The position numbers and the translations under genes were made by a program. DNA of 41,932 nucleotides, from contig JBHELW010000319.1 in the NCBI GenBank assembly GCA_046262915.1, positions 1-41,932 of the forward strand. The letters are read 5' to 3'. The notes below the pieces were generated by a model, which did no database searches, was not told the DNA's origin, and saw nothing but the letters and a program-made list of their open reading frames with translations. This DNA comes from Mycobacteriales bacterium. Lineage in GTDB: Bacteria; Actinomycetota; Actinomycetes; BP-191. Below are positions 3,226 to 40,164 of this stretch, in pieces (within the stretch, counting starts at the first letter, position 1; the number at the start of each line of letters is the position of its first letter).

Positions 3226-3349
3226 CGTCGACGGCATGCGTAGCCGATCGGACTTCGCGGGCTCGACGGCGCGCTTGAAGCGGCGCACCCGTTCGCACGC
3301 CGAGTGGACGGCCAACACGGTGAAGCGCAGCGACATCACCGCACCGAAG

Positions 3350-3358
3350 CCCCCCCCC
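3350..3358 (+). repeat. C9 homopolymer at a second reading-frame break
   Basis: Counted directly. Frame 2 (ATG 3236) is coding-like up to the tract. The methylase frame (frame 0) is open from 3324 and coding-like from 3360. Confidence 0.9.
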
Positions 3359-3494
3359 GCTGTTCAACCTGCACGAGGATCAGAACGACGAGCCGCTGGA
3401 GGTCGAGCCGCAGCCGATCTACGGCCAGTACCCGCGCGGGCTGATCGCGAAGCTGCTCCCCCTGCTGCGCTGCGAGCGCCGCGAGATCCTGCAC

Positions 3495-34511: not shown

Positions 34512-34606
34512 TCGTTACCAGCTCAACCTGCGGCACTTGCGACGGAATCGGCGGCTTGGAAATGAAAGCGCCGCGCAAGTGACCGGATCGCCGGCATCGG
34601 CCTGTC

Positions 34607-34656
34607 TTGAGGTGCTAGTGGGTAACACCGTGGGGGTTCGAGTCCCCCTTCGCGCA
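34607..34656 (+). other. 3' half of a tRNA-Leu(GAG): candidate attP core
   Basis: Anticodon loop TTGAGGT, stem GCTAG, class II variable arm TGGGTAACACCGT, T arm GGGGG-TTCGAGT-CCCCC, acceptor TTCGCGC, discriminator A. The 5' half (34573-34606) is only degenerately tRNA-like. The integrase gene is adjacent. Confidence 0.6.
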
Positions 34657-34995
34657 CGAGGACTTAGCTCCACTCCCGTTCCCAGCCGGGTCGTCCTGGG
34701 AACGGGATGAAGCTGGGTCGTTTCCAGCGGCGAGCTCGAGCACGCGCTCGAAGGTGGCCGCCACCGCGACGCAGGACCCAACCGGAGTGTCCGGGCACCA
34801 CGTGAGCACCCAGACCTCGCCGGTCGCCCGGATCGCCGCGAGGTCCTCAGGGCGGATCGCCTCATCGCGCGGCTCGCCGCCAGCGTCCGCCGCGAGCAGG
34901 TGGCTCTCGATCCAGGTCTCCAGCGGGAGGTAGTCGCCCCGGTGGGGGTTGTGCTGGAGCGAGAGCTCGATGTGCTTGGGCCACTGGACCGGCAT
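34615..34995 (-). CDS. Hypothetical protein translationally coupled to int; its 3' end runs through the tRNA fragment
   Basis: ATGA overlap with the int stop. The C-terminal ...KGDSNPHGVTH is the antisense reading of the tRNA T arm. Confidence 0.5.
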   Translation of the reverse strand: MPVQWPKHIELSLQHNPHRGDYLPLETWIESHLLAADAGGEPRDEAIRPEDLAAIRATGEVWVLTWCPDTPVGSCVAVAATFERVLELAAGNDPASSRSQDDPAGNGSGAKSSCAKGDSNPHGVTH

Positions 34996-36005
34996 CAGTT
35001 CGCCTCATCGTGTAGCACGCGCTGCATCGCCCGCGTGCGCCCGTCCTGCTCGGCCCCGGGGGCCAGGTAGTGGCGCCGCGTGACCTTGGGCCCGATCTGC
35101 CCCAGCGCCGCCGCGACGTGCTCGACCGACACGGCGCCGGCGGAGATCGTCGCCTGGGTGCCGCGCAGGCCGTGCGGGCAGACCTCGGGCACCTTGGCGA
35201 CCGCGCACAGCCGGCGCACGTGGTACGCGACCCAGTGCCGATCGCGCCCCCCGAACAGCAGCTCGTCGCCGCGGCGCCCGGCGGCGAGCGCGGCGAGCGG
35301 GGCGCGCAGCACCCGGGGCACCTCGAGCGCGCGGTCGCCCGCAGGCGTCTTGGCGCGCTCGATCCAGAGCACCCGGGCTCGGTCGTCCACGTCGCGCACC
35401 GCCCGGCCCGCGATCTCGCCGGCGCGCATCCCCATCAGCAGGGCCATCGCCGCGGCGAGCCCGGCCTCGCTCTTCTCCGCCAGGGCGACGGCCGCGTACC
35501 GGCGCGCCTCGTCGATCCGCAACTTCTTCTTGCCGCGCCGGCGCGGGCCGGTCGGGACCAGGCCCGCGAACGGGTCGCCGCCGGCGAGCCAGCCCTGCCC
35601 CCGGCACCACGCCGCGAACCGCCGCGCGGTGCCGAGCTCGCCGAACTGGGTGTCGGGGCCGACGTCCGCGCAGCGCGCCTTCCACAGCTCGCGGCCGAGC
35701 TCGGGCGTGAGAGCGCTGAGCGGCCGATCGGGGCCGTCGGTCTGCAGCAGCCCCGCGAGGCGGTAGCCGATCGTCACGACCGACCGGAGCCCCCGCGCCC
35801 GGCAGTGCTCGACGTAGGCGTCAACGGTGCTGGCGATCGTGCGGCCCTCGATCTGGGCGCGGGCGATGCCGAGTGCCGTGATCGCCTCGGCCTCTGTCGC
35901 AAAGCTCGGAGAGCTTCGCTCACCGTCTGCTCGATCGATCGTGATCCGCCATCGGTTGCCGTGGGGGTAGGGTCCATTGACTCGCTCCTGTTTCTTCCGT
36001 CGCAC
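34995..36005 (-). CDS. int: Tyrosine integrase
   Basis: HGLRGTQ (HxxR), RRHYL (catalytic Tyr region) and an arm-binding-type N-terminus GNRWRITIDRADGERSS. Confidence 0.85.
   Translation of the reverse strand: MRRKKQERVNGPYPHGNRWRITIDRADGERSSPSFATEAEAITALGIARAQIEGRTIASTVDAYVEHCRARGLRSVVTIGYRLAGLLQTDGPDRPLSALTPELGRELWKARCADVGPDTQFGELGTARRFAAWCRGQGWLAGGDPFAGLVPTGPRRRGKKKLRIDEARRYAAVALAEKSEAGLAAAMALLMGMRAGEIAGRAVRDVDDRARVLWIERAKTPAGDRALEVPRVLRAPLAALAAGRRGDELLFGGRDRHWVAYHVRRLCAVAKVPEVCPHGLRGTQATISAGAVSVEHVAAALGQIGPKVTRRHYLAPGAEQDGRTRAMQRVLHDEAN

Positions 36006-37987: not shown

Positions 37988-37991
<4 letters not shown>
37584..37991 (-). CDS. Hypothetical protein (135 aa)
   Basis: Clean ORF with ATGA overlaps at both ends. 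Confidence 0.6.
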
Positions 37992-38847
<856 letters not shown>

Positions 38848-38851
<4 letters not shown>

Positions 38852-39036
38852 CGGTGCGCCTCCTTGTAGAACAGCGTGATCGTCAGGCAGTGGAACTCGC
38901 TGTCGCTGGACTGCGTGACCACCTTGTCGACGACCTCGACGGGGTTCGCGCGCAGCCAGGCGGTGATCTGGTCGCCCATCTGACGACGGTCCAAATGCTT
39001 CGTCTCCGAGAACACCTTGACTCCAGTGAATTGCAT
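38848..39036 (-). CDS. Small conserved-looking protein (62 aa)
   Basis: ATG 39036 preceded by AAGGGTGGA. MQFTGVKVFSETKHLDRRQMGDQITAWL...SSDSEFHCLTITLFY. ATGA overlap with the next gene. Confidence 0.6.
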
Positions 39037-39060: not shown

Positions 39061-39162
39061 TGGTCCCTCGGGCCGGACTCGAACCGGCGTTTCCGTACTA
39101 TGAATTGCGACCACATTCCTGGAGGGGCCGCACGGTGTGTCTGCCATCCACACTGCCGAGGG
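39061..39162 (-). ncRNA. tRNA-shaped gene (102 nt) with an expanded anticodon region and encoded CCA
   Basis: CCCTCGG/CCGAGGG acceptor (7 bp). D arm GTGT-GGATGGCAG-ACAC. CCGTG...TACGG closes 33 nt. T arm GCCGG-TTCGAGT-CCGGC. Discriminator A, then CCA. Confidence 0.6.
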
Positions 39163-39270
39163 AGACACCGACGCTGATTCGTCGGTGCTGGCGTCGACGG
39201 GTCTCCCCGTCCCGGAGCCGCCCGGTTGCCGCGCGTTGAGCGTTGGAGACATCCTCCGCGCGGCAAAGCG

Positions 39271-40164
39271 TCAGTCGCGACTGCCCTCCTTCCCGGCATC
39301 CTCGACCCATTCCGGATCCGCGATCGCCGGCCCGAGGTCGTGCAGGATCTCGAGCGGCTCGATGCCGGTCGAGTACCCGCCCCACAGGTTCGTGGCCTCG
39401 TAGATCTGCAGCCGCTCCAGCCATGCGAGCCGCAGCTTGTCGCCCTGCTCCAGCGTCGTCGGCGTGAGCTCGTAGACCTGGACCACGTACGGCGGCACGT
39501 TCTCGACCGCCACGATGTACACCTCGCGCGGCGCCCGGCCGCCGTTCTCGTGCTTGATCGCCGCGCGCTGGTCGGCGAGCTGCGCGTGGTAGCCCATGTT
39601 CGCGGCGTCGCGCACGAACCGCCACGGCGCGGCACACCTGGTGGTCTTGAGCTCGACTAGGTGGTCGGCGCGGCGCGCGTCGGGCGTCGACTGCCGGGCC
39701 CGGCCGAGCTCGGACCAGACGATGGAGCGCTCGTACACCATGCCGGGCCCGAACAGCAGGCGTGCGGCGACCGGATGGCCGTGTAGCGCGTCGCGGATCC
39801 GCTGCGCGTGGTCGTGCTCGGCGATGGTCAGCATCGCCTTGCCGGCGTGCTTGACCTGGAACTCCTTCCACACGTCGCCCGAGCGCGGGGCGATCTTCTT
39901 CGGGTTCTTCTTCGCCGGCTGGTTCCAGACAGCGATCGGCTTGTCGAAGGTGACCGCGTGCGCGCCCGTGCCGAGCCGGCGCGCCAGCGTGTCGGCGCCG
40001 TCGCCCTGGAACGCGTGGAGGCAGAGCGCGCCGCACGCGCCGGCCGCCTTCAGGTGGTGAAAGCGCGCCGGCAGCGTGCGCGGGTCGACCACCTTGCGGC
40101 GCGGGGCGTCGAGGTCGGGCTCCTCGTCATCGAAGGGCGAGGTGTCGTCGGCGTCCAGCATCAT
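39271..40164 (-). CDS. PD-(D/E)xK exonuclease (RecE/exonuclease VIII-like)
   Basis: STPDARRADHLVELKTTR (D...ELK) and GYHAQLADQ. ATGA-coupled start at 40164. Confidence 0.6.
   Translation of the reverse strand: MMLDADDTSPFDDEEPDLDAPRRKVVDPRTLPARFHHLKAAGACGALCLHAFQGDGADTLARRLGTGAHAVTFDKPIAVWNQPAKKNPKKIAPRSGDVWKEFQVKHAGKAMLTIAEHDHAQRIRDALHGHPVAARLLFGPGMVYERSIVWSELGRARQSTPDARRADHLVELKTTRCAAPWRFVRDAANMGYHAQLADQRAAIKHENGGRAPREVYIVAVENVPPYVVQVYELTPTTLEQGDKLRLAWLERLQIYEATNLWGGYSTGIEPLEILHDLGPAIADPEWVEDAGKEGSRD

Follow-up and report, generated by a model that had tools for sequence, protein, structure and literature searches.

Overview of the locus

We analyzed a stretch of 41,932 nt, hereafter called the window (contig JBHELW010000319.1 of GenBank assembly GCA_046262915.1), with a focus on a transfer RNA (tRNA)-shaped module on its minus strand in which the anticodon loop is replaced by a much longer sequence. 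The window is apparently the whole genome of a temperate phage of siphovirus type with a G+C content of about 70%, and the module lies within a run of overlapping minus-strand genes that spans the interval between 41.9 kb and the integrase gene. The original prediction, made from the sequence of the window alone, had placed the module at the head of the leftward operon. This was incorrect, as the module is located 108 nt 3′ of the stop codon of an exonuclease gene, which itself overlaps the next gene upstream, and further minus-strand open reading frames (ORFs) reach 41.9 kb. The predicted 62-aa ORF, 24 nt beyond the CCA of the module, was confirmed. The features at the locus are as follows.

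39271–40164, minus strand: RecE-like PD-(D/E)XK exonuclease, 297 aa (DUF3799, exonuclease VIII family; PF12684; phrog_412, E = 2e-31)
39166–39270, minus strand: structured leader, about 110 nt
39061–39162, minus strand: type-A tRNA-like module of 102 nt, encoded CCA included
38848–39036, minus strand: 62-aa ORF, with its ATG at 39036 preceded by the Shine-Dalgarno-like GGGTGGA

Architecture of the tRNA-shaped module

The minus-strand sequence and the tRNA shape with an expanded anticodon loop read exactly as originally claimed. The module consists of the following parts.

39162–39156 / 39071–39065, minus strand: acceptor stem CCCTCGG/CCGAGGG, 7 of 7 positions paired
39153–39150 / 39140–39137, minus strand: D stem GTGT/ACAC, loop GGATGGCAG
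39135–39131 / 39097–39093, minus strand: stem in the anticodon position, CCGTG/TACGG, 5 bp with one G.U
39098–39130, minus strand: 33-nt expansion replacing the 7-nt anticodon loop
39088–39072, minus strand: T arm GCCGG TTCGAGT CCGGC

Positions 8 and 9 of the module are C and A (39155–39154), a single A (39136) separates the D stem from the stem in the anticodon position, the variable loop is AAAC, and the 3′ end is formed by an A at 39064 followed by CCA at 39063–39061. The four helices of the cloverleaf are in register, the T loop agrees with the consensus, and both G15/C48 and G18G19 are kept, while the pair 3-70 is C-G. The module carries C8/G14 in place of the usual U8/A14, a trait that had been pointed out before and that proved to be common to five relatives. 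A decoding tRNA carries U33 and a position-37 purine in an anticodon loop of 7 bases; in the module, this loop comprises 33 nt. The substrate features of RNase P and 3′ processing can be read in the sequence, namely a U at position −1, a 12-bp coaxial stack of acceptor and T stems, an elbow of T loop and D loop, and ACCA, and these features are retained in the relatives described below.

Detection of the module

ARAGORN with default settings (no introns) reported no tRNA gene in the whole 41.9-kb window, and Rfam 15 returned nothing on the window at the gathering score, which is 29 bits for the tRNA model; on a 451-nt slice, no tRNA match was obtained even at E ≤ 10. With the intron option (-i), ARAGORN returned a 76-nt tRNA-Met(CAT) with a 26-nt intron after position 32, in line with the earlier description. 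The search for transfer-messenger RNA (tmRNA; ARAGORN -m) gave nothing, and neither Intron_gpI nor C4 was matched in Rfam. Weak Rfam hits to "Plastid-ycf2" (23–29 bits against a gathering score of 65.7) at window 39063–39126 (plus strand), L339:3058–3130 (minus strand) and L341:3090–3164 (minus strand), where L-numbers are our labels of contigs, were rejected as an artefact on the antisense strand of the acceptor/T halves of tRNAs and tRNA-like modules.

We then scanned the window strictly for the T-loop motif together with fully paired T (5/5), acceptor (7/7), D (4/4) and anticodon (5/5) stems in register. Exactly one site, the module itself, was found in the window, and none was found in 500 dinucleotide shuffles. 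Therefore, the cloverleaf frame is not a product of chance. The minimum-free-energy fold of the module was unexceptional (z = −0.84), and loose DNA pattern scans of IMG/VR gave mostly chance hits.

Related modules in other phages

To gather relatives, we followed the homologues of two proteins, the exonuclease and the 62-aa protein. In this small sample of 13 distinct phage contigs, all of them metagenomic, the exonuclease gene is followed by a structured leader of about 110 nt and then by a tRNA or a tRNA-like module. Every module of the family lies 3′ of a RecE-like exonuclease gene, and the synteny of exonuclease and module was observed in L001–L003, L007, L331, L332, L338–L342 and L344.

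The slot after the leader is filled in different ways. Ordinary tRNAs occupy it in L002, with Arg(TCT) at 62.8 bits, and in L339, with Val(TAC) at 60.7 bits, as scored by the Rfam tRNA model. The module of L341 is of tRNA size and has a GCAA-capped hairpin where the anticodon loop is expected, and that of L338, also of tRNA size, has C33 and C55 and no usable anticodon loop. Nine modules carry inserts of 12–80 nt. Taken together, the missing anticodon loop in L341, C33/C55 in L338 and the nine inserts indicate that decoding is dispensable at this slot.

Six of the insert-bearing modules (window, L001, L006, L009, L331 and L344) form a group that we call type A, which is characterized by C8/G14, a D stem GYGT/ACRC and an anticodon stem of 5–7 bp closing 23–39 nt. 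The window module shows the C8/G14, the D stem, an expanded loop bearing TCGCA and the position after the leader 3′ of the exonuclease gene. The modules of L007 and L332 lack a D stem and have an arm of 10–12 bp. L342 carries two modules in tandem, of which one has an insert of about 80 nt:

3286–3418 of JAXOUH010036725.1: second module of L342, with G3.U70, a canonical D arm and an insert of about 80 nt between the D and T arms

The G3.U70 pair is the alanine identity pair. Immediately after this second module comes the Shine-Dalgarno sequence of the next gene. In the relatives without CCA, the Shine-Dalgarno sequence GGAGG of the next gene begins 2 nt past the discriminator, so that module and downstream mRNA are tightly juxtaposed.

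A further tRNA-like gene of 111 nt was seen beside a tRNA-Val(AAC) gene in AT-rich large phage contigs, at the following places.

L308:7983–8094, minus strand: 111-nt tRNA-like gene
L320:9999–10110, plus strand: 111-nt tRNA-like gene
L323:2400–2511, plus strand: 111-nt tRNA-like gene

Its middle part is expanded, and it shares the unusual D arm of the window module (C8, GTGT/ACAC, loop GGATGGAG); it was missed by default ARAGORN and by Rfam.

Conservation of the fold

The stems and T loops of 10 modules were placed in a gapless alignment, anchored by hand on the T loop and the acceptor ends. Standard pairs made up 98.1% of the 210 stem cells, and double-sided changes were observed at 15 of the 21 pairs. 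None of 500 shuffles reached the observed pairing, and slid partners paired in only 24–46% of cases. In the six type-A modules, whose lineages show 59–76% identity in the flanking proteins, 125 of 126 stem cells (99.2%) were paired, with compensatory changes at 12 of the 21 pairs. G.U pairs are present in the acceptor stem, in the anticodon stem and in hairpin H4 of the leader; they would read A.C on the opposite strand, which indicates that the structure belongs to the sense RNA.

The Rfam tRNA model returned no match for the window copy. A covariance model built from the other five type-A modules recovered window positions 39162–39064 at 61.4 bits (E of about 4e-12, the E-values of such a home-made model being rough) and found no second significant match in the window. 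The type-A model scored ordinary tRNAs and non-type-A modules at 27–44 bits. These results revealed that the fold is under selection, that a family of such modules exists, and that ordinary tRNAs share the slot in relatives. They also bear on the suggestion that the element is a decayed tRNA. Relatives with an ordinary tRNA at this place together with random decay of the present copy had been named as grounds against function; the former were indeed found in L002 and L339, but the window copy is not decaying, as compensatory changes have preserved each of the four helices.

The structured leader

The three hairpins predicted upstream of the module stand at their places and are conserved with covariation, except that the stem at 39229–39263 has 8 bp rather than 7; a fourth small hairpin was added. 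The hairpins of the window, from 5′ to 3′ on the minus strand, are as follows.

39264–39257 / 39235–39228, minus strand: hairpin H1, 8-bp stem GCCGCGCG/CGCGCGGC with a 21-nt loop containing TGTCTCCA
39225–39222 / 39215–39212, minus strand: hairpin H2, CCGG GCGGCT CCGG
39211–39206 / 39201–39196, minus strand: hairpin H3, GACGGG GAGA CCCGTC, with a GNRA-type tetraloop
39165–39188, minus strand: hairpin H4, (G)CACCGACG AATCAG CGTCGGTG(T), with an 8-bp stem at 39187–39180 / 39173–39166

The leader was also found in L001, L006, L009, L331, L338–L342, L344, L002, L007 and L332. In the family, H1 has a GC stem of 8–11 bp and the loop consensus TG(T)TCTCCA, and its stem covaries while the loop motif is kept (L001, L006, L009, L331, L338, L339, L341 and L344). 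The loop of H2 forms a pseudoknot of 4–6 Watson-Crick pairs with the stretch just 5′ of H4 in 11 relatives, among which six different sequence pairs occur. The GAGA loop of H3, the usual cap in the family, sits on covarying stems in L001, L006, L331, L338, L339 and L341. H4, which has G.U at two positions, is followed by CT and then by position 1 of the module, and the sequence ...CGTCGGTGTC(T/C) at its end is kept in nearly all relatives. Furthermore, the window and L001 agree completely in 86 nt of the leader, although their exonucleases share only 59% identity. No Rfam family matched the leader at E ≤ 1 to 10, nor did we find a second copy of it in the window. The leader is a conserved structured RNA that had not been annotated.

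No promoter or terminator consensus was found near the module and in the leader, including a terminator downstream. A sigma-54-like TGGCA in the H2 loops was considered as a promoter and rejected, since it does not keep its register among the relatives and covaries as RNA. A single frame is common to the exonuclease gene, the leader, the module and the 62-aa ORF of the window. Read-through of the exonuclease stop codon into the leader was dismissed because the spacing of 236 nt in L001 is out of frame. The H1 loop UGUUCUCCAAC, like TG(T)TCTCCAAC of the family, shows a partial likeness to boxA (UGCUCUUUAACAA) that serves as a lead only, and the GAGA hairpin H3 may resemble boxB. boxA recruits NusB/E (reviewed in PMC12360218).

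The expanded arm and the intron question

The 33-nt expansion of the window module holds TCGCA (39110–39106) and the C/U-rich tract CCCCTCC. TCGCA is present in seven of the nine insert-bearing modules, on two body types (window, L001, L006, L009, L331, L344 and L007). The remaining insert sequence cannot be aligned even between close relatives, and C/U-rich tracts recur in it. A role as an antisense regulator was examined on both strands of the 42-kb window and rejected, as the best duplex of the insert (−38.4 kcal/mol) equaled the minima of shuffled inserts. Exact complementary words between the phage and the insert or leader loops stayed at chance level, with only chance 10-mers, and the pairing of the insert with the downstream ribosome-binding region was no better than that of shuffles in eight modules. 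A hairpin or switch in which TCGCA pairs with the GCG of the anticodon stem was discarded as too weak (3 bp).

Excision of an insert from the window module leaves CTCATAG or TTCATAG, with U33, CAU and A37, and the module had been offered as a possible novel short-intron tRNA. We made all eight single-block removals that leave seven bases in each insert-bearing relative. None of the six relatives (L001, L006, L009, L331, L344 and the first module of L342) yielded U33 together with a position-37 purine by any single excision. The isotypes assigned by ARAGORN -i were Met for the window and Cys, Val, Gly, Cys, Pro and Glu for the relatives, and the intron sites differed. No bulge-helix-bulge could be drawn from the window sequence or its predicted fold, in which an inner helix CGGCC/GGUCG extends the stem without a bulge on the 5′ strand and with a single 10-nt bulge on the 3′ strand. 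The insert of 26–33 nt is far from a group I intron, which comprises about 200 nt or more with a P1–P9 core, and no splicing endonuclease or ligase domain was found among the 10 neighboring ORFs scanned. As only the window copy yields a textbook loop upon excision, the short-intron reading fails, and the CTCATAG loop is best seen, from the comparison of these sequences, as a coincidence or a relic. A textbook-looking "spliced" anticodon loop can thus be a coincidence that is exposed only by comparative data.

Comparison with known tRNA-like RNAs

The nearest comparison is offered by the ordinary tRNAs of L002 (Arg UCU) and L339 (Val UAC), which share with the window module the slot, the leader and the junction after ...GGTGTCT. 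Their maturation enzymes are presumably the same, and the acceptor and T arms of L339 (GCCTCGG..GCCGG TTCGATC CCGGC CCGAGAC) resemble those of the window (CCCTCGG..GCCGG TTCGAGT CCGGC CCGAGGG). In contrast to these tRNAs, the window module has a loop of 33 nt rather than 7, and U8/A14 is replaced by C8/G14; its failure with the tRNA covariance model implies that it cannot decode.

In function, the module appears most like mascRNA-type processing modules and the RNase P-matured C4 and CI RNAs. In MALAT1, which gives rise to mascRNA, and in MEN-beta, RNase P and RNase Z cleave at a tRNA-like element, so that the upstream 3′ end is set and a small tRNA-like RNA is freed. The likeness lies in a non-decoding tRNA shape within a longer transcript and in the cleavage proposed for the phage module. 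However, mascRNA belongs to a eukaryotic nuclear long non-coding RNA and has a reduced anticodon arm, whereas the window module stands between protein genes of a phage operon and has an expanded one. In P1/P7 and in P4, the C4 antisense RNA and the CI RNA, respectively, are embedded in operons and matured by RNase P via a tRNA-mimic precursor with variable loops; they resemble the window module as small structured phage RNAs within an operon transcript. The loops of C4 and CI pair with sites in their own transcript, whereas the window insert shows no such complementarity, and the window module differs from C4 in its complete cloverleaf and in the absence of a C4 match in Rfam.

Extra nucleotides in the anticodon loop are likewise found in archaeal and eukaryal intron-containing pre-tRNAs and in bacterial tRNAs with group I introns. 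Unlike the former, the window module has no bulge-helix-bulge, its homologues share no conserved mature loop and the setting is bacterial or phage; a group I intron, in turn, has ten times the length of its insert. Bacterial pseudo-tRNAs such as the tRNA-Other of B. cereus are non-decoding and keep the acceptor/T-arm half, as does the tRNA-like domain of tmRNA. The modules of L007 and L332, without a D stem and with a long helix replacing the anticodon arm, are reminiscent of tmRNA, but the window module has neither G3.U70 nor a tag reading frame nor the pseudoknots of tmRNA. Membership in each class considered (tRNA, intron tRNA, group I host, tmRNA and C4) was thus rejected, as a defining feature was found to be missing each time.

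In a tRNA scaffold, an insert replaces the anticodon loop, and the tRNA body provides correct processing and protection against nucleases. Such scaffolds have been engineered for recombinant RNA expression (the approach is mentioned in PMC3753655). It is a laboratory design, and the phage family would be its counterpart only if the RNA is stable and the insert functional.

Proposed role of the module and alternative explanations

We propose that the module is a tRNA-derived, non-decoding, L-shaped tRNA mimic that would act as a processing element in the leftward early operon of a temperate phage, a reading to which we give an even chance. Since true tRNAs stand at the same junction in L002 and L339, processing by the tRNA machinery at this point is a given for those phages, and as the window module keeps what RNase P and the 3′ enzymes recognize, we take it to be an excised non-decoding mimic. 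The module would be transcribed within a polycistronic RNA, directly 3′ of the conserved structured leader, and would fold in a tRNA-like manner, with an acceptor/T-arm stack and an elbow between the GG of the D loop and the T loop. Host tRNA-maturation enzymes could then excise it, with RNase P cutting between U39163 and C39162 and 3′ processing taking place at or after A-CCA. This would leave an upstream RNA ending in H4, with its 3′ end protected, and a downstream mRNA starting about 24 nt before the 62-aa ORF. The released RNA of about 100 nt would be unable to read codons, would probably be stable and would display an elongated, fast-evolving arm with UCGCA. The cuts by RNase P and the 3′ enzymes, the consequences for the fate of the mRNA and whatever role the arm may have are inferred from the sequence. 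Among the four readings originally offered, the tRNA-like processing handle agrees best with the comparative data.

Several observations weigh against this proposal. For a bare cut site the acceptor/T half would suffice, but pairing in the anticodon stem is 100%, with four to five covarying pairs, and a plain cut site explains neither the lengthening of the arm nor TCGCA in the inserts. The leader, with its pseudoknot, GNRA loop and 86 identical nucleotides, goes far beyond what a protective hairpin at a 3′ end would require. The pseudoknot is not evident in the window, as only 3 bp, the chance level, can be drawn for the window and L001. Covariation counted across isotypes is in part a comparison of different tRNAs, which the count limited to type A avoids.

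The conserved anticodon stem, the lengthened arm and the recurring TCGCA suggest a role for the released RNA itself, as a scaffold or decoy. The module might accordingly be a tRNA-scaffolded effector RNA, whose body confers maturation and stability and whose expanded arm (UCGCA plus the C/U-rich tract) acts on a host or phage factor, e.g., an RNA-binding protein or a defence nuclease that targets tRNAs, in the manner of a decoy, sponge or aptamer; a decoy against anticodon nucleases, as suggested earlier, is possible. We consider an effector RNA rather unlikely on balance. It would account for an anticodon stem that is not only kept but often longer (5–7 bp in type A and 10–12 bp in L007/L332), for TCGCA in seven of nine otherwise unalignable inserts on two body types, for the C/U-rich tracts and for the tandem modules of L342 with one insert of about 80 nt, but it sits poorly with chance-level complementarity to the 42-kb phage and the downstream ribosome-binding region, with the high variability of the inserts in length (12–80 nt) and sequence, and with relatives that manage with plain tRNAs in the slot. 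Less probable still is a larger cis-acting RNA of about 215 nt (H1–H4 plus module) through which the operon would be controlled at the level of transcription or translation, e.g., by a processive antitermination (boxA/nut-, put- or EAR-like) that shields the untranslated stretch from Rho. The constant coupling of leader and module, the extreme conservation of the leader (86 identical nt between the window and L001) with its covarying pseudoknot and GNRA hairpin, the intergenic position inside the operon and, as a lead only, the partial likeness of the H1 loop to boxA fit such a control RNA. However, the leader has no Rfam match, no second copy in the window and no terminator consensus downstream, the likeness to boxA is partial, and the interchangeability of the module with ordinary tRNAs makes an integral structural domain unlikely.

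A pseudogene, that is, a phage tRNA broken by an insertion in the anticodon loop and drifting without function, is strongly disfavored, and we give it a small probability. The ordinary tRNAs in the slot of relatives, the rejection of the window copy by the Rfam tRNA model and default ARAGORN, and the inserts that cannot be aligned between close relatives argue in its favor; drift would not preserve, across six lineages with 59–76% identity in the flanking proteins, 125 of 126 paired stem cells with 12 compensated pairs, the T loop, G18G19, G15/C48 and the common C8/G14, nor allow a leave-one-out model to recover the window at 61 bits. The least probable explanation, to which we attach very little weight, is a genuine tRNA(CAU), for Met or Ile2, interrupted between positions 32 and 33 by a novel 26-nt intron, which some bacterial or phage activity would remove. 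The ARAGORN -i solution and the U33, CAU and A37 left by excision speak for it, but none of the six relatives gives a U33/R37 loop, isotypes and sites differ, there is no bulge-helix-bulge, the insert is far short of a group I intron, and C8/G14 is atypical of a decoding tRNA.

If the module is indeed a processing element, uncultured temperate phages would use a non-decoding tRNA shape as a built-in cut site and possibly as a protected chassis for a variable arm. We also put forward, as a doubtful idea, that the pseudoknotted leader after the exonuclease gene may be a "launch pad" for the expression of interchangeable tRNA-shaped RNAs, among which, besides true tRNAs, would be natural scaffolds with inserts of 12–80 nt in place of the anticodon loop. 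Such inserts would be stable decoys or aptamers, e.g., against host tRNA-targeting defence nucleases or RNA-binding factors, and the arrangement would be the natural counterpart of the engineered tRNA-scaffold system. The general kind, a tRNA-like mimic or processing element, is already known; the type-A module family and the leader motif are newly defined here. As the whole family escapes standard tRNA finders and Rfam, phage genomes are likely to contain more such modules than have been counted. The family provides a compact natural test of the tRNA features needed for maturation versus decoding, a new conserved leader RNA with pseudoknot and GNRA hairpin, and a possible natural precedent for tRNA-scaffold RNA display.

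Flanking genes and phage context

The exonuclease is 100% identical to the 297-aa NCBI product P0124. The 62-aa ORF belongs to a highly conserved family of about 65 aa with more than 2,500 clusters and about 70% identity, which is otherwise chromosomal in Myxococcus, Corallococcus, Nannocystis, Archangium, Anaeromyxobacter and others of the Myxococcota. The protein had no match in Pfam, NCBIfam, PHROG or PDB. Its AlphaFold model is confident (predicted local distance difference test score, pLDDT, 90.5) and shows a beta-alpha-beta-beta arrangement, and a fold search with the model gave nothing below E = 0.1. Two JGI members of this family carry the odd name TrmFO/GidA.

An obligate link between the module and the 62-aa gene was ruled out, as about 165 chromosomal or metagenomic loci with the 62-aa gene contained no module. 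In L331 and L332 the module stands before another gene, L328–L330 have the 62-aa gene without a module, and in phages with the 62-aa gene directly after RecT there is no gap between the two. The module is thus tied to the exonuclease and the leader and not to the 62-aa gene. The next ORF downstream in the window is as follows.

37988–38851, minus strand: 287-aa ORF, overlapping the stop of the 62-aa ORF by 4 nt

The C-terminal half of its product consists of low-complexity Ala/Asp/Val repeats (…AAAADADAYAAAVAAAADAAAVAAAADAYDAAYAAAV…).

Among 50,697 phage records, no cultured relative was matched by DNA or by the 62-aa protein, and the exonuclease had distant matches only (≤36% identity). The clues to the host, which is uncultured, conflict: the 62-aa family is chromosomal in Myxococcota, and an NCBI metagenome-assembled genome with identical 62-aa and exonuclease proteins is labelled Mycobacteriales. 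Judged from gene content and relatives, which point to phages of Myxococcota, the contig labelled Mycobacteriales may be mis-binned, and the group probably consists of uncultured temperate phages of Myxococcota. The structural genes occupy the plus strand up to about 33 kb of the window and are followed by the features below.

34606–34656, plus strand: 3′ half of a type-II tRNA, adjoining the integrase gene
34995–36005, minus strand: tyrosine integrase

The anticodon loop of the tRNA half is TTGAGGT (Leu-GAG-like) and its variable arm is long; the T arm reads GGGGG TTCGAGT CCCCC, and TTCGCGC-A forms the 3′ strand of the acceptor. Very probably, this tRNA half represents the attP core, which would make a host tRNA-Leu gene the integration site of the phage.

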